A DNA stretch of 64,000 nt, taken from NCBI GenBank assembly GCA_965220065.1, contig OZ244804.1:4554431-4618430 (forward strand), given 5' to 3'. Source of the stretch: Candidatus Poribacteria bacterium. Lineage in GTDB: Bacteria; Poribacteria; WGA-4E; WGA-3G. The notes below the pieces were generated by a model. That model was not told the DNA's origin and ran no database searches. It was given only the letters and a program-made list of their open reading frames with translations. The position numbers and the translations under genes were made by a program. Shown piece after piece: positions 12,601 through 52,739 of the stretch (position 1 is its first letter; each line of letters begins with the position of its first letter).

Positions 12601-13662
12601 AGACAGCGGATGCGTAAAGATGTTCTGTGTCCCGACACTCCCCGCAAAGTCATAACTTTTCCAATACGCCCCGTATCGAGAATCATGACGTTCCACAACG
12701 CGATTGTGATTCGACACACCGGAATCGTTGAAACCCGCACGCCAAACACGTAATCCCGCTGCGTTGCGAATATTTTCGACCACATTCACCTCAAGCCGTG
12801 CCTCTAATTCCCTATCGGTTTCTGGAAGGTCTAAGATGTCATGATAGAGTGGCGGTAAGGAGGCAGTCGCAAGAAACCAATCCACATGAACCAATGGCAC
12901 CTCACAATCCATCGCTTCGCGCAGATTCATTAGTTTTTCACGGAGTGCTGTCTGCGTTGGCGCGTTGAATTCAATCTTGTATGGATATTCCGCCTCAATC
13001 AACGTCCACCGATTGGTTCCGATCTCCCATTCGTAGTTTCGGAGGTCGATATAGAAGATCGTTTCTTTCGGATCAATGGATCGTGGGTTAATAACCTTAC
13101 GCCCCCAAGAGAGACTGTTCACGAGTTTCGAGAGTGCCCGTTGATAGGCGCGGAGTGTCTCAGTCGTCTCACCGGCGTTATAGAGATGTGTCATCGTAAA
13201 ATAGCGGGCGAAGGCACGGTCAAACGGTGCGAGTGAGTTCACATGCTCCTCAATCGTGTCAAGCATCGCCTTGGGTGTAATGAAGGCGGTGTCTCGTTCT
13301 GGCATCTGCCAATCCGGTGCGCCCCTTTGAATCCAATTCCCAATCGTCAGAATTGCGGCGGGAGGCAGTTGGGGTTGACCCAACGGCATCCGTTTTGCCG
13401 GATCGTTTGTGAGGAGTCGCTTATAGAGTTCAGATTCTATCGGTTTCCTCGGAACGACTGTGCCTGTTTCGATGAGTGCCGTATGCTCAATGATGATTTC
13501 CTCAGTAAACGCCCCATGTTCTCCATGGCAGTTGAGGCAGTTTTGCTCAAAGATCGCATACGCCTGTTGTGCAAGATTCTGCTGTGCATCAACACTGTGA
13601 GAGTTGCCCAGAATGAGGGTCAACAGCGAAATAAATATAATAAAAATTTTCCAGTTTTTCAT
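9601..13662 (-). CDS. Giant secreted multidomain protein (copy 3), same architecture as 2661..6686: cytochrome c, LRR, cohesin, dockerin, T9SS CTD.
   Basis: N-term MKNWKIFIIFISLLTLILGNSHSVDA. CLNCHGEHG and CIGCH. LRRs. WQFDIAFDHTMLEAVEVNEGNF cohesin. DVNRDGQVSILDLVLVARNFGK...DLNGDGVINVLDLILV dockerin. LLPNYPNPFNPETWIPY... CTD ending MLIRK. Long stretches nucleotide-identical to copy 2 (e.g. approx 9700-9820 vs approx 2760-2880). Confidence 0.8.
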   Translation of the reverse strand: MKNWKIFIIFISLLTLILGNSHSVDAQQNLAQQAYAIFEQNCLNCHGEHGAFTEEIIIEHTALIETGTVVPRKPIESELYKRLLTNDPAKRMPLGQPQLPPAAILTIGNWIQRGAPDWQMPERDTAFITPKAMLDTIEEHVNSLAPFDRAFARYFTMTHLYNAGETTETLRAYQRALSKLVNSLSWGRKVINPRSIDPKETIFYIDLRNYEWEIGTNRWTLIEAEYPYKIEFNAPTQTALREKLMNLREAMDCEVPLVHVDWFLATASLPPLYHDILDLPETDRELEARLEVNVVENIRNAAGLRVWRAGFNDSGVSNHNRVVERHDSRYGAYWKSYDFAGSVGTQNIFTHPLSFTHDGGEIIFNLPNGLQAYYLADAGGRRLDAAPINIVSNPAASDPTVRNGLSCIGCHTEGMKDFQDTVRGVIQRNANPPFNKDRALQLYTDKGTMDTLVAEDTARYRKALEATGGVFGGIEPVQRFHEAFQRPLDVAYAAAAVGLETETFLQKIRANASLQNLGLLVLENDTMKRDTWTDRFSEIVFALDFPSKSGGASVDSRTERIPGESVYIPDPNLRAVIEEVLGKAPGATITADEMATLETFETLADAKGIRDLTGLEFATNMRDLWLKGNKHISDLSPIAGLHNLWALDIGHNSVSDLSPVAGLTNLAKINIGNNKISDLSPLEELKNLEYFKSWNNFLSDLSPLMKLPNLWNIDICGGDPDISVLKDAKNLKELYLNFCGVSDTDLSTLANLTNLTHLSVAANGRLSDISPLAGLTTLEWLNLRECNISDISPLSGLTNLKWIDLENNNISDFSPLDDLPETTKIFDLFNPGSSVKEGPKIEGPWLWVITPTEGRSLDTDFLAEMSSGEVTELKIATHGATKGALVGSSVWKSHKISSTDNNMNDMANATGLGKGDINNHIAYGSVRVISPREQDIFLFAEADNVGKAWLNGQKVDGTFRGVPRAFPVTLKQGVNFLLVGVYEFDGGWSGYFSFEEGTEYSVSVDPRIGYTFSKPLIYLGDTFTLDLNVENIHNLGGWQFDIAFDHTMLEAVEVNEGNFLKTQGGATFFQRGTIQNRSGKIAGLSSARLSETGVSGTGALLSVTFTAKSAGHTRLRLDNFQLASITGNSITAESHEVVITVAGRLTTGDVNRDGQVSILDLVLVARNFGKTASANSEVDLNGDGVINVLDLILVSQHMGESTASASPSILAMNSMDELNPAMIQAWIEQAQIEDDGSIAFREGIAFLQSLLVVLIPKETALLPNYPNPFNPETWIPYHLANSSEVTITIYDMRGTIVHQLNLGHQHEGYYTGRSRAAYWDGRNDIGESVASGLYFYTLTAGDFTATRKMLIRK

Positions 13663-13698
13663 GTATTTTCCTCTTGCGTTATTTTATTTCAGGATATG

Positions 13699-15954
13699 CT
13701 ACTCAAAAGCATTGGCGACGGCGACGAGATCCAGAACATTGACTGTTCCATCGCCATTGACATCTGGGGTATCCTTGCCAAAAGCATTTGCGACAGCAAC
13801 GAGGTCAAGGATATTGACAATCCCATCCGCATTGACATCCGTTGTGGGAGGGGTTTCTAAACCCGATTCCGATTTCAGATAGATTTCACCATCTAAATCA
13901 GGTAGAATGTGCAGGGTGTTGCGTAAACTACTTTCTACACCTGTTGCTTGTTCTATTAGGCGAATAACTTGGGGGGCACCACTGCGGTTATAGACCGCCC
14001 AGCCATTGGTGAACTCTCGGATAAACAACCCCTCTCGGTTCTCATAAAGCTGCGCTTTGGTTTCATCGCCACCAACCGGTTGACCGAGAGGAGCATCATA
14101 GAAGTCGTACCAGTACTTCGTGTTTTGGTGAGTGTGCCGCTTGCCCTGTGCATGAAGATCCGTATGACCTGGCCAAAATTCAAAAGGGTGGGCGGGATGG
14201 TCAAGGGCACCTCCCATGGTAAACATGACATAACCATCGGAATGCGTCAAACTCATCGTCGTCCATAGACGCATCCATTGTAGATTTCTCGAGCTATCCA
14301 GCAGTTCGTTCCTCACGCCCCTGCCTGCTAAACAGTTGATTTGAGGTTCTCGAAGGTTTTCTTCAGCCCACGACAGCGTGCTTTCAATTTCGGAAAGTCT
14401 TGCGTAGGTATAACCGCCCTCATAATCTTCATAAGTTTCCATGAAAACGCCATTGATATATTCCGCATGCCTCGGAATAGTTGTACCAATCGTGTTAGTC
14501 GTCGTTACCAGTATCAAGAAATCCTCACCAACAGCATCACGAATCCCTTGTATGATACGATCCTTTGCGGTATTGGCTTCTTCTACGGTTATATATCCTT
14601 CAAGTGCCTTCGCCCAATGATCTATGGCAATTCCGTCGAAAATCCCACACTTTGCAACTTCAATCGCCTGTTGGATAATCCACTCTTGCGCAGCAGGACG
14701 TGTGAAGTCTATTATATATTCATCCCATGTCGGAATTTCTAATATATTTCCCGATTCATCTCTGAGCCAATATGGCAAATCCTCTGGGTATTCGAGGCGA
14801 GACGCAGCATAGTAATGTATGCCTGTCAGGAGAATCAGATTTGGATTCTGAGCGCGCATCCGATCTATTATTTGCATGGAATCCTCAAGGTTTCCTGTTA
14901 ATTTCCAGCCGTCTGGTGTTGAATTCCAAGCCCACCCGAAACTTACAGCGCAGAAAAACAGATCGTGATATGCTATCCCCTCTTCCCTTGAAAGTTTTGG
15001 GAGGTTCACTATATCCCCACATGCTTGAAAAACCGACGGATGCGCCCTATTTTCAATACGAGGCAGTATAGGGGCTCTCTCTATATCGCAAGTAACTAGA
15101 CGGTGTGTCTTTAGTATCTGAAGGACTTCTGAATCTAATGATATACGTCCCAAAGTTAAGACTTCTATCCCGGCAAGCCCATAAATCGGTGTAAAGTCAA
15201 TGATTTTATTTCTGCTGAGATGCAATTCTTTCAGATTCACCAAGCCTTGTAGCGGTGATATATCTGCTATCTGATTACTTTCAAGTGCCAATCCTTTTAA
15301 GTTGACGAGTCCAGTGAGTGATGAAATATCTTCTATCTGATTTGCTTCAAGTTGCAATTCTTTCAGGTTCACCAAGCCTTGTAGCGGTGATATATCCGTC
15401 AGAAGATTGGCGTTCAGTTCAAGAACCTGTAGTCCCACAAGTCCCGCGAGTGGTGAAATATCTGCTATCTGGTTACGTCCCAATACCAAAACTTCCAGAT
15501 TTATCAAACCTGCAAAGGGCGTTATATCCGAAATTCGATTCTCATACAACTTTAAAACCCGTAAGTTCTCAAGCCCCACGAGCGGTGTTAAATCCGACAC
15601 TTGACTTTTAATAATAGACAAGGATTCTAAGTTCTCAAGTCCCGCAAGTGGCGTTAAATCTGAGACTTCACTTCTGTCAATAACCAAAACTTTAAGATTC
15701 ACGGCATGCTCAAGTCCTTTTAAACTCCTAATATCGGGTTCTATTTTTATTAAGAGAAGATTTTGTAATCTTGCCATGTCGCCAGGGTGTATCGGTATTG
15801 TGTCCGGAACTGCGAGTTCTTCACGGATAGCTTGCTGTAGATTCGGGTCAGGCATCCAGTCTTCTTTGTCTTGGGCGTGTGTGATGTCTCCGAGTGAGGT
15901 AATTAGTAGCAATCCGATCAACATAACTGTAGATATGAATCCATTGATTTTCAT
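13699..15954 (-). CDS. Secreted LRR + GHL-domain protein with C-terminal dockerin pair. True start is the MKINGF signal peptide; the ORF-track extension to 16350 is spurious.
   Basis: MKINGFISTVMLIGLLLITSLGDITHAQ signal peptide, matching the start of gene 19309..21546. Reverse complement of CAT at 15952..15954. LRRs VSDLTPLAGLENL. GHL domain. C-term DVNADGIVNILDLVAVANAFGKDTPDVNGDGTVNVLDLVAVANAFE. Only 36 bp from the upstream gene, so probably co-transcribed. Confidence 0.75.
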   Translation of the reverse strand: MKINGFISTVMLIGLLLITSLGDITHAQDKEDWMPDPNLQQAIREELAVPDTIPIHPGDMARLQNLLLIKIEPDIRSLKGLEHAVNLKVLVIDRSEVSDLTPLAGLENLESLSIIKSQVSDLTPLVGLENLRVLKLYENRISDITPFAGLINLEVLVLGRNQIADISPLAGLVGLQVLELNANLLTDISPLQGLVNLKELQLEANQIEDISSLTGLVNLKGLALESNQIADISPLQGLVNLKELHLSRNKIIDFTPIYGLAGIEVLTLGRISLDSEVLQILKTHRLVTCDIERAPILPRIENRAHPSVFQACGDIVNLPKLSREEGIAYHDLFFCAVSFGWAWNSTPDGWKLTGNLEDSMQIIDRMRAQNPNLILLTGIHYYAASRLEYPEDLPYWLRDESGNILEIPTWDEYIIDFTRPAAQEWIIQQAIEVAKCGIFDGIAIDHWAKALEGYITVEEANTAKDRIIQGIRDAVGEDFLILVTTTNTIGTTIPRHAEYINGVFMETYEDYEGGYTYARLSEIESTLSWAEENLREPQINCLAGRGVRNELLDSSRNLQWMRLWTTMSLTHSDGYVMFTMGGALDHPAHPFEFWPGHTDLHAQGKRHTHQNTKYWYDFYDAPLGQPVGGDETKAQLYENREGLFIREFTNGWAVYNRSGAPQVIRLIEQATGVESSLRNTLHILPDLDGEIYLKSESGLETPPTTDVNADGIVNILDLVAVANAFGKDTPDVNGDGTVNVLDLVAVANAFE

Positions 15955-16241
15955 AAGGCGTATTCTCCTTCTATTAGATAGTAGAAATTGGTTTGTTTTT
16001 CTGGTGTTAGAACTATTTGGGATGGCAACAAGGTCCAAAATGTTGACGCTTTCATCGCTATTGACATCTGCAGGCGATGTGCTTATTTTATAAAAATCTC
16101 GCCGTCTAAATCCGGGATGGTGTGTGATGTGCTGCTGATACGACTCGCAACACCTGTGGCTTGGATCGGCAACTGGATCTGCTATTCTTTGCCGCTGCGA
16201 TTGCAGACCACCCGTCCGAGTTATCATAAGGTCATTTGATA
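15955..16241 (-). pseudogene. Untranslated fossil of a GHL-domain 3' end plus one dockerin repeat, between the T9SS-CTD gene 16242..19211 and gene 13699..15954.
   Basis: Nucleotide homology to the 3' ends of genes 6840.., 13699.. and 21678.. (ttataaaaatctcgccgtctaaatccggg...). Translation gives a remnant like AVYNRSGKE*QIQLP...IPDLDGEIFIK with an internal stop, then FYKISTSPADVNSDESVNILDLVAI (decayed dockerin). Plus-strand ORF 15988..16239 is its shadow. Confidence 0.6.
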
Positions 16242-27095: not shown

Positions 27096-27215
27096 GGACT
27101 TACGCAGGTTCCTCTTTTGTAGCACAAACTGTTAGTTTGTGTCAGAAGACCGGCTGCTTTTTTTCAAAATTCCCATCTAACAGAACATACCACGATCAAA
27201 ATTGCGTAAGTCCTG
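27096..27215. repeat. Small palindromic element bounded by 11-bp inverted repeats (ggacttacgca / tgcgtaagtcc) and carrying the TGTAGCACAAACT-N3-AGTTTGTG motif, abutting MITE copy B.
   Basis: ggacttacgcagg at 27096. Motif ttgtagcacaaactgttagtttgtgtc at 27118..27142. tgcgtaagtcc at 27203..27213. Related unit at 58242..58286. Confidence 0.5.
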
Positions 27216-27245
27216 TATATTGTTATTATCAAGCTCAAATCTTTG

Positions 27246-29669: not shown

Positions 29670-29699
29670 AAGTTATCAGATTTTTAACTGTTATCTAAA

Positions 29700-31248
29700 A
29701 CTTCGGTTCTAAAACCTCGCTCTTTAGAGCGGGGATACAGAACCGCCCTCTTGGAAAGGACTCAACCGTTGTTTGAAAAAGATATTTTTCCCTTGACAAA
29801 ACAGGATAAAAACTGCTATAATTAAGCGTATCAGGTTGGCAGACATGCTTAGCGTTACCGTTTGGTAACGTGTCTGCCTCCCACTAAGCAGGGGATAAAG
29901 CCTGATACCTGAGAGTCCATGCGAAACACGACCCATAAACTTTTTCACGATAAACAGTTGCGCCACTTGCACAACGACTTGAATATCATAGGCGTTGTTA
30001 GGAATCATTTCAATGCGCTTGCGCGCCGGTATTACCGCCGCTATGGTAAAGGTCTTTCGTATGCCAAAATGTCGAAACACCTGACGAAACTCAAGAAACT
30101 TGAGAAATACGCGTATTGGAATATCCCGTACTCGTGGGCATTGCAAAACATGCTCAAACGTTTGGCACAATCCTTTAGAGAAATGCGAACCCTTGGACGT
30201 GGACACCCGCAATTCAAGTCGTGTAAGAAACACAAGGGAATGACGTTTGACGGCACCCAAGCACCGCTTGAAAAAGTTTTGGAGAAACAAAAACAGAAAA
30301 GAAATCATCCGACGTATCGTATCCGCTTGAATGAGCGTTGGTATCGTTTCGCATTGCATCGTGAGATACAAGGCGAAATCACGCGCGTTCAAGTTACCAG
30401 AGACGCACTTGGAGATATGTATATCACCCTTACTGAAGATTACTCGGAAATCAAATATGAACCCAAGACAGGTAAAGCTGAAGGGTTCGATTTCGGTATC
30501 ACAGAAGATTTCCTGATAGGCAGTAACGGGAAAACCTACCCGTCTCTGATGTTTTACAAACTCAATGCCAAGCGGTTGGCAGCAGCACAAAAGGTGTATT
30601 CTCGGAAGGTCAAAGGGTCTAACAATCAGGAACGCGAACGCAAGAATGTTGCCCGTATCCACAAAAAGACGGCAAATCAACGAACCGACCACCATTGGAA
30701 ACTGGCGATAGACCTCTGCCGTGACTTTGATATTCTATTCTTTGAAGACCTGAATCTTGAAGGTATGAAACGGTTGTGGGGAAAACAGGTCTCTGATCTG
30801 GGATTTGGTGAGTTCCTGCGAAAACTCAAACACCAGTCTCAGAAGCGTATCCGTTGTGTGCTGAAGATTGGGCGGTGGACTCCCACGACAAAGTGCTGCT
30901 CTGTTTGTGACTATAAAAATGAAAATCTGACGTTAGCAGATAGAGACTGGACGTGTCCTGAATGTCATACCCATCTGGACCGCGACCATAACGCTGCTAT
31001 GAATATTCTTAAGGAAGGGATAGCTTCCTTTGGGTTAGGAGAAGTAAATCCTATTGTTCTGTTCAACAAAATCGTAGGTATCTCTGTCGCATCGTCCTAT
31101 CCGTTGCTGAATTCCACAAACGCTTCTGCGTAACGTATTGCAGAAGCCTCCTGCTTTAGCAGGAGGTCTATCACAACTCCAGTTAAGAATTAACCAGAAA
31201 CCACCGCGAAACATAGTGGAGCGGTGACCAGATTTAATCGTTTAAAAA
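29700..31248 (+). mobile_element. IS200/IS605-family element carrying only tnpB (IS1341-like, no tnpA), with structured left and right ends. The boundaries are approximate.
   Basis: Nested hairpins at 29820..29920 (ggcagaca...tgtctgcc enclosing gttaccg/tttggtaac; tatcaggt...acctgata). Two hairpins after the tnpB stop (cctcctgc-tttag-caggagg at approx 31153..31175 and caccgc-N14-gcggtg at approx 31203..31228), consistent with a right end / omega-RNA scaffold. The element abuts the stop of the convergent gene at 31249. Confidence 0.6.
29919..31133 (+). CDS. tnpB: TnpB (IS605 OrfB family RNA-guided endonuclease, Cas12 ancestor) with an intact RuvC triad and C-terminal zinc finger.
   Basis: RuvC-I GFDFGI (D). 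RuvC-II LFFEDLNLEG (E). RuvC-III DRDHNAAMNI (D). Zn finger CSVCDYK...CPECH. N-terminal YNHF/LSYAKMSKHLTKLKK region typical of the TnpB WED/REC portion. Antisense ORF 29724..30695 rejected as a shadow. Confidence 0.85.
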   Translation: MRNTTHKLFHDKQLRHLHNDLNIIGVVRNHFNALARRYYRRYGKGLSYAKMSKHLTKLKKLEKYAYWNIPYSWALQNMLKRLAQSFREMRTLGRGHPQFKSCKKHKGMTFDGTQAPLEKVLEKQKQKRNHPTYRIRLNERWYRFALHREIQGEITRVQVTRDALGDMYITLTEDYSEIKYEPKTGKAEGFDFGITEDFLIGSNGKTYPSLMFYKLNAKRLAAAQKVYSRKVKGSNNQERERKNVARIHKKTANQRTDHHWKLAIDLCRDFDILFFEDLNLEGMKRLWGKQVSDLGFGEFLRKLKHQSQKRIRCVLKIGRWTPTTKCCSVCDYKNENLTLADRDWTCPECHTHLDRDHNAAMNILKEGIASFGLGEVNPIVLFNKIVGISVASSYPLLNSTNASA

Positions 31249-32889
31249 TTAGATTTTCCCTGACATCCGTTCCGCCAATCGAGCGAGCGCCGGTGAAGTA
31301 TCCAATTTTTCAAGTTCCGCTTCAATCAGGGTAAAGTGTTGCGTCTCGGCGAGTGCGGCTTTAATGGCTTCGTCAAATTCACCTTCGGTTCGGACATAGT
31401 AGCCGCGTCCTGTCCCAAAGAGTGTTGGCATACAACTGTAGTTCCAACTTCCTATGTCGTTAAAGGAGCCATCGAGGAGGTGCCGTTCGGTGCCGTACCC
31501 GTGGTTATTGAGTACCAGAACAATTGGATTGAGTCCGTAACGAACGGTCGTTGAGAGTTCGGTGCCTGTCATTTGGAAGGCACCATCCCCGACGATAACG
31601 AGACACCGAGTGTCCGGCATACTCATTTGCGCCCCAACGGACGCTGGCACTGCAAACCCCATTGTGGTGTAGTAGGCAGGACTGATAAAGTTGGTATGTT
31701 GATGGATGCGCAACTCCGCCGCCCCGAAGAGGCTGTCGCCGACATCAGCGATAACTGTCAGTTCGTCGTTTATGAATTCGTTGAGGTGTTGGAACAATCG
31801 GGAAGTTGTTAAAGGTTTATCGGGTTCGACTTTGAACGGGTCCTTATCTGGAGATGCCCATCCCAAATTCGGCTTCCGCCGTCTTCGGAGTTTCGACGAA
31901 TTGAGACCGTCAATGAAATCGTCAAACATCACCTCTTCGTAGTTGTGGTAGCGGACTGTAATTTTTTCTGAGGTGGCGTAGATTGAGCGTGCTCGGTCGA
32001 GGTTTGCGGTATAAATCCCAAGGTTCACATCCGTCATAAATGCGCCGAGGATGATGACGCAATCCGACTCTTCAACGAATTGTCGGACCTCCTGTCTCCC
32101 CATTGCCCCCTCGTATATCCCCAAGTAAAGCGGATGGGATTCTGGCACCACTGACTTTCCAAGGAGTGTTGCCACCACTGGAATCCGTTTTTCTTCTATG
32201 AGTGTGAGTAATTTGTTCTGATAACCGAATCTGTGGAGTTCTACGCCCGCGAGAATGACAGGTCTTTTACTGTGGTTGATGAAATCAATGGCTTCTTCAA
32301 CAGCGACGTCCAATGTTTCTGGATCGCTGAGATGTCCGCCCGTTGTGGGACGTTGGTAAAGTGTGCCGCGGGCATCGACCATGTCACGTGGGAGTTCAAT
32401 GTATCCCGGACGTTTGTAGCGGTAGACGGCATCGAGTACCCGATCGATTTCATTGAAGGCAGTGAAAGGTTCGTCAAGTAGTGCCGTTGCGACGGTGATC
32501 TCGTCGTAAATCCGTTGTTGGGTATGGAAATCTCTGACTTTATGGTGAAGGAGTGCATCTTTTCCGTGTTCTCTGATACCGGGGGCACCACTGATAACAA
32601 CAACGGGGGATTTCTCGGCGTAGGCACCTGCGACAGCGTTCACCATTGATAACCCACCGACGCAATAGGTGACACACGCGGCACCCATGCCTTTTATCCG
32701 AGCGTAGGCATCCGCGGCGTAGCCTGCTGCGTCCTCACGGGTCATACCGATATGCTGAATTGAACTCTGCTCGATAAGGTCATAGAACCGCAGAACGTAA
32801 TCGCCGGGAACGCCGAAGATGTGTTCAATGTTATAGCCTTCCAGTTTTCTGAGTAGGTATTCGCCGATTGTTGGAGGTCTGTTGTGCAT
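31249..32889 (-). CDS. Thiamine-pyrophosphate-dependent alpha-keto acid decarboxylase (indolepyruvate/pyruvate decarboxylase family).
   Basis: TPP-binding motif GDGAFQMTGTELSTTVRYGLNPIVLVLNNHGY. N-terminal pyrimidine-binding domain GVPGDYVL. 546 aa, typical of IPDC/PDC. Confidence 0.75.
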   Translation of the reverse strand: MHNRPPTIGEYLLRKLEGYNIEHIFGVPGDYVLRFYDLIEQSSIQHIGMTREDAAGYAADAYARIKGMGAACVTYCVGGLSMVNAVAGAYAEKSPVVVISGAPGIREHGKDALLHHKVRDFHTQQRIYDEITVATALLDEPFTAFNEIDRVLDAVYRYKRPGYIELPRDMVDARGTLYQRPTTGGHLSDPETLDVAVEEAIDFINHSKRPVILAGVELHRFGYQNKLLTLIEEKRIPVVATLLGKSVVPESHPLYLGIYEGAMGRQEVRQFVEESDCVIILGAFMTDVNLGIYTANLDRARSIYATSEKITVRYHNYEEVMFDDFIDGLNSSKLRRRRKPNLGWASPDKDPFKVEPDKPLTTSRLFQHLNEFINDELTVIADVGDSLFGAAELRIHQHTNFISPAYYTTMGFAVPASVGAQMSMPDTRCLVIVGDGAFQMTGTELSTTVRYGLNPIVLVLNNHGYGTERHLLDGSFNDIGSWNYSCMPTLFGTGRGYYVRTEGEFDEAIKAALAETQHFTLIEAELEKLDTSPALARLAERMSGKI

Positions 32890-32916: not shown

Positions 32917-33582
32917 CTAGAAGTTCTGGGTGGCAACAATGGCAGCATCTGGAACTTTCCGGATGTTTACCGTAACTTTCTCGCGTCTTGGGCTACCATC
33001 AGCATTTCTAAAACCTTTCTGGAATGAACCACCACATTGTCCTAGCGTTTCAGTATCAAAACAGACAAAGTGGATTTCCGATAAGATAAACTCTGTTTTA
33101 CGCCTTCTTGACATGGCCCCTCTGTTTATCCGGTTTACTTCATATTTGCTTATTCCCTCTTTCAGTTCATCATGCCACCTTTTAAAGGTTCTTTCTTCAT
33201 CGTTGTATTCTACTTCACCGATCGCGAGAATCACTCCGTAGTGACCATAATCGCTTATTGTATTTGCTATCGCTTCAGCATCATTTGTAATAACTGTATG
33301 GTTTGTTGTATTTGCCGCATGTGCCTTAAAGTCCCACGAAATTTCACGAAACGCGTCGAATTCTGTGTTGCGATATTTCTTCCCGGGCATATCAATTATG
33401 TCATCAAAATGAGTTTCGCATAAAAATTCAAAGTAGAAACCCATCCATTCCATCTGCCGCCACTGTGTTGAACCGCCCTCTTTCATTTCAAGGATGGAAC
33501 TTCTGCCATCCCAAACTTTCGGCATGTTTCGAGAGGCGGTTTGCAGTTTTTCAACTGTGTCAACTATCTTTTGATTTATCAT
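32917..33582 (-). CDS. Candidate type II restriction endonuclease partner of the adjacent methyltransferase. No recognisable catalytic motif.
   Basis: 221-aa ORF lying 7 bp downstream of the MTase on the same strand in an AT-rich block. Assignment rests on gene-neighbourhood logic only. Confidence 0.4.
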   Translation of the reverse strand: MINQKIVDTVEKLQTASRNMPKVWDGRSSILEMKEGGSTQWRQMEWMGFYFEFLCETHFDDIIDMPGKKYRNTEFDAFREISWDFKAHAANTTNHTVITNDAEAIANTISDYGHYGVILAIGEVEYNDEERTFKRWHDELKEGISKYEVNRINRGAMSRRRKTEFILSEIHFVCFDTETLGQCGGSFQKGFRNADGSPRREKVTVNIRKVPDAAIVATQNF

Positions 33583-33589
33583 AGTAAAA

Positions 33590-34405
33590 TTATGTTTCCT
33601 TACTGAATAAGTCCCATACAGGTTCTTCTTCCGTTTTCTGAATTAAGTATTTCCCTGACTCAATCCGGTCAAGTGCGAATTCATAATACGCTGGGACAAT
33701 CTCAAAGCCTATGTAATGTCGTTCCTTCATTTTGCTGACAACAGCAACCTGTCCAGAACCTAAAAATGGATCCAAAACAACATCACCTTTTTGACTAGAA
33801 TAGTCAAGAATTTTCTCAATCAGTTCAGCAGGTAATTTCGTTGGTGTTTTGACTGCTCCTTGCCAATACTCCCTTTTGATTTCCCAGACATCTTCCTTGT
33901 CTTTGTAGTGGGCAGACCCACCGCTTTCAGTTTTCGCATCCTTGCTAAATCGGCGATAAGGATAAAATTTTCGTTTTTTGTCATTTTTACACAAGAAAAG
34001 ACAGTGGTAGTGAGACGTTACGTACTTACGCTTGGTGACAACACCAAACTGATATTTCCAAATAAGGTGATTAACTGTAATGAGTTGACATTGATCGATT
34101 GCTATCAGAAGGTCTTTTAGATAGTTCCATCCTGAAAAGATGTACATACTACCAGAGTCTTTTAGCACTTTTGTTGCTGCTGAAAGCCAGTCAAGCGTAA
34201 AGGCAAGATAGTCGCTGCCTGCGATTTCATTGTAACCTTCAAGAACTCGACTCTCTGTTCGGTTGTAGTTGTGACGAGTCGCTTTGAAGTCAATGGCAAA
34301 AGGCGGATCTGTTATAACAAGGTCAACACATTCATCCGGCATTTCGGACATCAACTTAATACAGTCCCCTTGTTTGATGATATCAATGTATTCAGGATGT
34401 TTCAT
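33590..34405 (-). CDS. DNA methyltransferase, beta-class amino-MTase (probably N6-adenine), type II R-M system.
   Basis: Motif IV VITDPPF precedes motif I VLDPFLGSGQ (beta permutation). N-terminus MKHPEYIDIIKQGDCIKLMSEMPDECVDLV is the classic small-MTase start (DpnA/HinfI-like architecture). Visibly lower GC than its flanks. Confidence 0.85.
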   Translation of the reverse strand: MKHPEYIDIIKQGDCIKLMSEMPDECVDLVITDPPFAIDFKATRHNYNRTESRVLEGYNEIAGSDYLAFTLDWLSAATKVLKDSGSMYIFSGWNYLKDLLIAIDQCQLITVNHLIWKYQFGVVTKRKYVTSHYHCLFLCKNDKKRKFYPYRRFSKDAKTESGGSAHYKDKEDVWEIKREYWQGAVKTPTKLPAELIEKILDYSSQKGDVVLDPFLGSGQVAVVSKMKERHYIGFEIVPAYYEFALDRIESGKYLIQKTEEEPVWDLFSKET

Positions 34406-52434: not shown

Positions 52435-52739
52435 TCTTTAATTATACCTTGCGGTTCGGTCAGGGGTTTAGCATTTAACCTTCTTTTTTGTATATCCGCC
52501 TGCGTGTTTTTGCGAATCAACGCTGAATGCGCGTGTGGCATTCATCGGGGTGTTTCTGCGTATTGTTGCAGGCTAACGGTAATGGGTCCATAATTGGAGG
52601 AGCCTGTTGTGCTCGCGAATTCCTACTTAACCAGAAACCTGCGCGTAAGCGTAGCGGAGCGCAGTCCAAGAGCCTATCAATTAAGAATTTAGCACAAGAC
52701 GGCTTGCAATGCAAGTCGGATGTATGCTACTCTGTGGGC

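Follow-up and report, generated by a model that had tools for sequence, protein, structure and literature searches.

The 64,000-nt window analyzed here, part of contig OZ244804.1 of Candidatus Poribacteria and the frame for all coordinates given without a contig label, contains a tnpB gene whose 404-aa product matches OrfB_IS605 (RuvC) and zinc-ribbon/TNB families in Pfam (E=4e-13 and 3e-16). The gene lies within an inserted element of 1480 bp that is of the IS200/IS605 type, carries tnpB only and shows no target-site duplication. Subterminal hairpins mark both ends of the element, a promoter and a structured leader precede the gene, and a second covarying structure spans its 3' end (Table 1). 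Together with the comparisons presented below, these features make it very probable that positions 29695..31174 represent a complete, non-autonomous tnpB-only (IS1341-like) IS200/IS605 element, one member of a family that is present in many copies and is found specifically in Candidatus Poribacteria.

Table 1. The tnpB element, its insertion site and its structured regions (positions within the window).
Feature	Position	Strand	Basis or remarks
Whole inserted element	29695..31174	+	Occupied/empty allele comparison; sharp conservation edges across copies
Target site and putative target-adjacent motif (TAM), TTAT	29691..29694	+	Host DNA directly 5' of the element
Left-end subterminal imperfect hairpin	29704..29745	+	Inverted repeat I1; both stems covary across copies
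Sigma-70-type promoter	29793..29822	+	TTGACA, 18-nt spacer with extended-10 TG, TATAAT; 12/12 consensus
Structured 5' leader of tnpB, ~85 nt	29828..29913	+	Three-way junction and pseudoknot; covariation (alignment A3)
Leader P1	29828-35 with 29901-08	+	Alignment A3
Leader P2	29838-45 with 29871-78	+	Alignment A3
Leader P2a hairpin	29853-59 with 29864-70	+	Alignment A3
Leader P3	29880-82 with 29892-94	+	Alignment A3
Leader pseudoknot, 7 bp	29846-52 (P2 internal loop) with 29884-90 (P3 loop)	+	7/7 pairs covary
Second copy of the P1 3' strand	29908-13	+	Tandem, 5-10 nt before the ATG
tnpB, 404 aa	29919..31133	+	Pfam OrfB_IS605 and Cas12f1-like_TNB
Putative omega-RNA scaffold	30984..31174	+	Five covarying stems; overlaps the tnpB 3' end and the element's right end; 5' limit approximate
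Right-end subterminal hairpin CCTCCTGC-TTTA-GCAGGAGG	31147..31166	+	6/7 pairs covary; doubles as the last stem of the putative omega-RNA
Putative guide AACTCCAGTTAAGAAT	31175..31190	+	Host DNA; directly after TTAT in the empty alleles

The exact ends of the element follow from alleles that lack it. An exact-protein look-up of the neighboring thiamine pyrophosphate (TPP)-enzyme gene led to six contigs with the identical protein, one of which, the 5.39-Mb contig L083, contains the element, whereas L081, L082, L084 and L085 have matching flanking genes without it. The occupied contig and one of the empty contigs come from a common sample, the metagenome ERZ24894577. All four empty alleles read ...AACTGTTAT|AACTCCAG... 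across the junction (in longer form, ...GATTTTTAACTGTTAT|AACTCCAGTTAAGAATTAACC...), while the window reads ...AACTGTTAT[C29695 ... C31174]AACTCCAG..., so that an empty TTAT|AACTCC stands against an occupied TTAT[C...CAC]AACTCC. Because the four empty contigs share this junction, the insert comprises exactly 29695-31174, without duplication, and no alternative placement fits. Similarly, when the 300 nt on either side of 76-77 copies were aligned, conservation began abruptly at TTATC (29691-95) and stopped abruptly at ...GGTCTATCAC (31174), TTAT at the left junction being 93-97% conserved (76 copies). Insertion 3' of a specific short motif without target-site duplication is a hallmark of IS200/IS605 transposition.

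These boundaries revise several details of the initial annotation of this DNA, which had been made from the sequence alone. The element is not wedged exactly against the stop codon of the convergent TPP-enzyme gene, a presumed decarboxylase in that account, as 74 nt of host DNA separate its end at 31174 from the stop at 31249. Likewise, the left end does not correspond to the region 29820..29920 proposed for it; position 29695 is where the element begins, with the subterminal hairpin at 29704-29745. Both stem-loops noted downstream of tnpB are present in the sequence, and the first (31147-31166) belongs to the element, but the second, a caccgc/gcggtg hairpin at 31204-31226, is host DNA that also occurs in the empty alleles. 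The flanks, expected to reveal the TAM and the target, did yield the TTAT motif as a candidate TAM and the empty allele as a putative target.

Both ends of the element carry subterminal hairpins, not terminal inverted repeats, as is characteristic of IS200/IS605 elements. The left hairpin combines an outer stem, CGGTTCT/AGAACCG, with an inner stem, CCTCGCTC-TTTA-GAGCGGGG, and the right hairpin is followed directly on its 3' side by an invariant tail, TCTATCAC (31167-31174). Left and right hairpin arms share 77% identity within an element compared with 54% between elements, and three or four hairpin types are visible among the elements; the two hairpins of one element are thus of one type, which is what a hairpin-recognizing Y1 transposase would require. 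Assignment to the IS607 family was rejected, since hairpin ends and TTAT-specific, duplication-free insertion are of the IS605 type and a serine recombinase was not seen. A solitary left-end hairpin region at L008:509-573(-), 85-89% identical to other left ends and without an adjacent tnpB, may be what is left of an element, or a miniature form of one.

The encoded protein retains the catalytic and zinc-finger residues of TnpB. A phmmer search of PDB sequences matched ISDra2 TnpB (8exa/8bf8/8h1j) with E=4e-45 over residues 18-375, and D191 (GFDFGI), E276 (FFEDLN) and D356 (LDRDHN) align with the catalytic D191/E278/D361 of ISDra2. A zinc finger is formed by C327-x2-C330 ... C346-x2-C349, and the triad and the four cysteines are invariant among 67 copies with intact genes. 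The earlier protein-level observation of an intact RuvC D/E/D triad and a CxxC..CxxC zinc finger was therefore correct, as the Pfam matches, the alignment with ISDra2, the triad and the zinc finger all agree. Its further proposal, that a solo TnpB with a 3' omega-RNA is a candidate active RNA-guided nuclease, gains backing from the empty site, the multi-copy relatives and the covariation, and the gene product may accordingly be described as a putative nuclease of this kind.

The structure at the 3' end of the gene was derived as a consensus from the last 260 nt of 80 copies. In the corresponding alignment (A2), its 42 pairs are 97.3% paired, 20 of them with changes on both sides; none of 500 shuffles equaled this result, and slid controls reached 36-58% paired. 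The stems lie at 31011-31030, 31050-31078, 31089-31107, 31122-31147 and 31147-31166, and the conserved structure ends at 31174 with the tail, which is consistent with the initial suggestion that an omega-RNA scaffold and the right end lie in this region. The stem at 31050-78 includes conserved G.U pairs, which point to a sense-strand RNA. Additionally, synonymous-codon diversity of tnpB is approximately halved from codon ~356 (nt ~30984) to the stop, and the start of the scaffold is placed near nt ~30984 for this reason. A second dip in synonymous diversity, at 30444-30533 (codons ~176-205), surrounds the catalytic D191; pairing of this part of tnpB with the leader was considered and rejected (see below). 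A 10-nt complementarity between 30707-16 and 31163-72 (repeat I21) lies far upstream of the scaffold and partly involves a window-specific hairpin arm.

Since the scaffold ends at the transposon boundary, analogy with ISDra2 points to the flanking AACTCCAGTTAAGAAT as the guide. Its guide role and its length of 16 nt are modeled on ISDra2-type TnpB, and on the same analogy the empty allele, TTAT followed by this sequence, would be the natural target of the omega-RNA. The sequences 3' of the right end differ at every locus.

The element has many relatives within Candidatus Poribacteria. We found 1697 TnpB homologues at E<=1e-3, the top 120 being 80-92% identical; few of these 120 are named, and all named ones come from Candidatus Poribacteria. 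A scan of a genome collection located 80 loci (L001-L080), every one in metagenome-assembled or single-amplified genomes of Poribacteria, with up to 7-10 copies per chromosome; no insertion orthologous to that of the window occurred among them. A protein-alignment scan aimed at distant relatives added 17 further copies from metagenomes, all of them close relatives. Approximately 90% of copies have intact open reading frames (ORFs), mostly of 403-404 aa, and a few have premature stops. The family is old yet has recently transposed, as the median identity between copies is 77%, whereas pairs at different sites of one chromosome (L024/L059, L053/L070) reach 99.2-99.3% nucleotide identity. TnpB elements of this sort are very common, and the present one is an ordinary, intact and recently mobile representative from a sponge-symbiont bacterium. 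At L063:1652-3001, a family-1 tnpB (family 1 being that of the window's element) is split at about codon 50 by a ~1.35-kb insertion.

The same data bear on whether tnpB has become a fixed, domesticated gene that serves the host, either as a TldR-like RNA-guided regulator or as a defense nuclease, and is no longer mobile. Such a role would agree with the lack of tnpA beside any copy and with the many copies in one genome that are only 72-85% identical and still intact, a pattern that points to long-term purifying selection. However, all 67 copies retain the full RuvC triad, in contrast to TldR; the window copy is present in some and absent from other co-occurring strains, with precise IS605-type junctions; 99%-identical copies occupy different sites of one genome; and the putative guide is simply flanking DNA, different at each locus. 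We therefore consider domestication very unlikely. TldR itself, a nuclease-dead repressor, was rejected because of the intact triad and of putative guides that differ at every locus.

For a mobile element of this type, the features in Table 1 suggest a model of how it would move and persist. The element would move as single-stranded DNA, with a Y1 (HUH) TnpA supplied in trans recognizing the hairpins at 29704-45 and 31147-66, cutting 3' of TTAT at the left end and 3' of ...TCTATCAC at the right end, and inserting the element next to TTAT, on its 3' side, without duplication. The promoter at 29793-29822 would start the tnpB mRNA at the knotted 5' leader, and the last ~190 nt of the transcript would fold into the omega-RNA scaffold and read into the flank, which would supply the guide. 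TnpB loaded with this omega-RNA may then cut element-free copies of the locus, where TTAT adjoins a match to the guide, and recombinational repair from the occupied copy would restore the element after the cut.

Several points weigh against this reading of the locus. The role of TTAT as a TAM is deduced from the insertion site, and the 5' limit of the scaffold is approximate because the closing long-range pairing involves invariant bases, beyond the reach of covariation. No consensus internal promoter for an omega-RNA was found, so the RNA would probably be processed from tnpB mRNA; its proposed biogenesis follows the analogy with ISDra2, for which a published account describes processing of the omega-RNA from tnpB mRNA (PMC10278001). 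Moreover, tblastn searches with IS200/IS608 TnpA queries found no tnpA in the window or beside ~100 copies, and Pfam found no Y1_Tnp on ten small ORFs of the window, in line with the initial statement that tnpA is absent. The queries do work, having detected a tnpA at L089:5874-6269 (Pfam Y1_Tnp, E=4e-38) on a contig shared with family-1 and family-2 TnpB elements. The DNA upstream of that gene is a GCATGG-rich tandem repeat, unlike the left end in the window, and no TnpA with matching ends was identified when the window, the ~100 copies and L089 were compared. Since the upstream DNA of the L089 gene differs from the left end here, mobilization in trans by TnpA is plausible but unproven. Downstream of the L089 Y1_Tnp gene lies the apparent start of another tnpB, and a ParA-like gene adjoins; the contig is plasmid-like, and the locus may represent an IS605-type element that is autonomous.

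The leader between the promoter and tnpB is the only unusual component of the element. The -10 and -35 boxes of the promoter are conserved across copies and precede every leader copy examined. In alignment A3, the 33 pairs of the leader are 93.7% paired, 26 of them with changes on both sides; no shuffle among 500 equaled it, and slid controls gave 25-41% paired. The nested inverted repeats noticed upstream of tnpB in the initial annotation are real, with a folding free energy of -41.7 kcal/mol (z -4.2; 0/200 shuffles equal), and the alignment reveals pairing that the minimum-free-energy fold misses. Although its sequence varies strongly between copies, the pseudoknot helix is nearly always complementary, for instance as TGCTTAG/CTAAGCA, TGTAAAG/CTTTACA or TACAACG/CGTTGTA. 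Pairs of the G.U kind outnumber A.C pairs by 112 vs 36, which fits a top-strand structure.

Two further roles for parts of the leader were considered and rejected. The pseudoknot helix does not act as an “address” for the flanks, as the best matches between the helix and the flanks of its own copy (3.0 and 3.1 nt) are as long as in swapped controls, and pairing of the leader 5' strand with a site in tnpB at 30512-21 (repeat I22) shows no covariation across copies.

A covariance model of the leader, searched over the window and related contigs, revealed that the structure extends beyond this element. It occurs once in the window and once before every family-1 tnpB; further copies precede genes of a second TnpB family with ~27% protein identity (L089, L051, L098 and L140) and a third TnpB-like gene (L009). 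The L140 copy, in front of TnpB on a viral-classified contig, is the only real one among the matches of a pattern scan of viral contigs; these matches numbered 26 in all, about as many as chance would give. Family 2 has the whole left end and the right hairpin type in common with family 1; its right tail is different. The leader also stands before genes for small signal-peptide/coiled-coil/transmembrane proteins that lack transposon ends, including two in L019 (2243-2345(-) and 1572-1678(-)) and the P0163 gene in eight contigs (L113-L120, e.g., L113:1900-2006; 71.5 bits). These leader-bearing small proteins have 113-131 aa, and their family counts 846 homologues in Poribacteria. In all of these leader copies, in the TnpB families and in front of small proteins, promoter and pseudoknot are preserved and the P1 strand is doubled, and the leader was not found at two small-protein homologues, the P0183 gene (on plasmid-like circular contigs) and the P0154 gene.

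This distribution bears on whether 29828-29913 could be a single-stranded-DNA left-end structure used by the transposase rather than an RNA. The structure does lie inside the left end, its covariation and its excess of G.T over A.C mark the top strand, on which IS200/IS605 transposases act, and the second TnpB family has the whole left end including this region. It begins, however, 5 nt past a promoter with a 12/12 consensus and ends at the start codon, the promoter-leader unit precedes small membrane-protein genes without transposon hairpins or ends, and the real subterminal hairpin is found elsewhere, at 29704-45. A DNA structure is thus improbable, and because the region is linked to a promoter and lies ahead of genes without transposon ends, we conclude that 29828-29913 forms a 5' leader in RNA, rather than serving the transposase as a substrate.

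Lengths in the small-protein family (P0121-P0240) differ mostly by steps of seven residues (117, 124, 131, 138, 146, 153 and 160 aa), which suggests gain and loss of heptad repeats. In L029, a family-1 element interrupts another leader unit (L029:4254-4354), where it sits at TATAATTAT|, downstream of that unit's -10 box and upstream of its leader, and L044:4262-4353 resembles this nested insertion; insertions can nest in this way because the leader promoters contain the TTAT target.

As for what the RNA leader does, its doubled P1 strand could indicate a ligand- or protein-responsive switch in which translation of tnpB and of the other leader-bearing genes is set by the P1 register, either 29901-08 or 29908-13, the latter beside the start codon. 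In favor of such a switch, a loop-to-internal-loop helix in which every pair covaries holds the arms of a three-way junction, conservation extends to ~20 unpaired nucleotides even where copies have diverged, and in each family covariation with the 5' strand of P1 is seen for either copy of its 3' strand. Distal pairing also beats chance, with a mean of -6.0 kcal/mol against -3.7 kcal/mol in mismatched controls. On the other hand, the proximal pairing is usually clearly more stable (mean -8.5 kcal/mol), the two registers lie within 2 kcal/mol in only 25% of copies, no ligand or logic of gene function joins TnpB to small membrane proteins, no Rfam riboswitch matches, and a passive 5' stabilizer or translation module fits the same data. 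We regard a switch as a possibility beside a stabilizer or a protein-binding site, and not the likeliest outcome. With similar caution, we tentatively propose that the leader may represent an undescribed class of cis-regulatory RNA, specific to Poribacteria and serving as a register-switching module for at least three TnpB families and for small membrane/coiled-coil proteins. If this is true, a signal of the cell would be linked to synthesis of the RNA-guided nuclease that the transposon encodes.

Comparison with known RNA families did not place either structure. No match was obtained in Rfam 15 (4227 families) for the 3' scaffold alone or for the whole window, and searches across the region, the leader, the 3' RNA, the window and 20 related loci gave only chance-level microRNA and long noncoding RNA matches. 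The leader matched no Rfam family, group I introns included, even at E<=10. The searchable literature on TnpB, Poribacteria, pseudoknots or untranslated regions (UTRs) and IS605-orfB contained no description of it. Weinberg and colleagues reportedly named a “Poribacteria-1” motif in 2017; if that motif is part of Rfam 15, it has no match to the leader. A pseudoknotted, structured RNA on the 5' side of a tnpB-bearing element brings to mind the IStrons, in which an IS605-type element is combined with a group I intron and of which examples with TnpB are presented in a preprint (bioRxiv 10.1101/2023.11.20.567912). The structured 5' region would then be the intron part. Given that it matches no group I intron, is only ~85 nt long, has its own promoter directly upstream and also precedes non-transposon genes, we assign this explanation an almost negligible probability.

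Among characterized systems, the element most clearly invites comparison with ISDra2 of Deinococcus radiodurans. The two TnpB proteins are of similar length (404 vs 408 aa), have the same domains and align at the D/E/D and CxxC..CxxC residues; in both, the guide-RNA scaffold, here a putative one, covers the last part of tnpB together with the right end, and insertion occurs 3' of a short T-rich motif that serves as the TAM, a role that TTAT would play here. The target and TAM of ISDra2 is TTGAT. The present element differs in using TTAT, in having no adjacent tnpA and in a scaffold without an Rfam relative, and we know of no 5' leader module in ISDra2. IS1341-type tnpB-only elements, a group that includes archaeal elements whose overlapping sense transcripts are omega-RNAs, share the solo tnpB, the subterminal hairpins, the multi-copy state and a presumed mobilization in trans. 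Unlike other elements of this type, the present family is specific to Poribacteria, and the mobility of a single copy is documented by an empty allele.

For the leader, the closest parallel is the 5' UTR of IS200 tnpA, a simple stem-loop that hides the ribosome-binding site. Both are structured leaders inside the left end, between promoter and start codon, but the leader described here has a three-way junction, a pseudoknot and a doubled P1 strand, and it also occurs on genes outside transposons. The families IS605-orfB-I (RF03065) and HEARO (RF02033) likewise comprise conserved RNAs that accompany orfB/tnpB genes; the leader has no match to them, and the same holds for the 3' scaffold.

In practical terms, everything needed to test the element as a compact programmable nuclease is defined, including the exact ends and the TTAT motif. 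The occupied and empty alleles coexist in one community and would provide a natural guide-target pair, and a ~190-nt scaffold supported by covariation is on hand, as are natural variants by the dozen. New insight could come from the leader, a conserved pseudoknotted 5' module common to selfish nuclease genes and host-like genes, which gives direct access to the control of TnpB expression in a symbiont that has not been cultivated.

The surrounding DNA contains further repeats and polymorphisms. Right of the element, the host sequence at 31187-31248 is a dispersed intergenic repeat that recurs in the window at 52627-52661 and elsewhere at L024:5396-5457, L043:4542-4586 and L080:2700-2737. Its stem covaries (ACCGCG.../...GCGGT vs CTGCGCG.../...GCGCAG) around a conserved loop, GAAACATAGTGGA, and it could be an element resembling repetitive extragenic palindromes, a terminator or a small RNA. 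The intergenic stretch at 27096-27219 has 75-77% identity to unrelated Poribacteria loci (L073, L077 and L041) and may be another dispersed repeat. At 32917-34405, a 271-aa DNA methylase (N6_N4_Mtase) and a neighboring ORF of 221 aa that has no Pfam match look like a restriction-modification pair. This pair is present in the window, L083, L084 and L085 and is replaced by a 174-aa ORF in L081 and L082, which makes the locus a second strain-level polymorphism adjoining the TnpB insertion. Finally, an ORF-poor stretch of 2.6 kb at 13600-16200, situated among very large paralogous genes and without Pfam, Rfam or tRNA matches, includes 66/132-nt tandem repeats at 15221-15471 and is probably a decayed repeat-protein gene.

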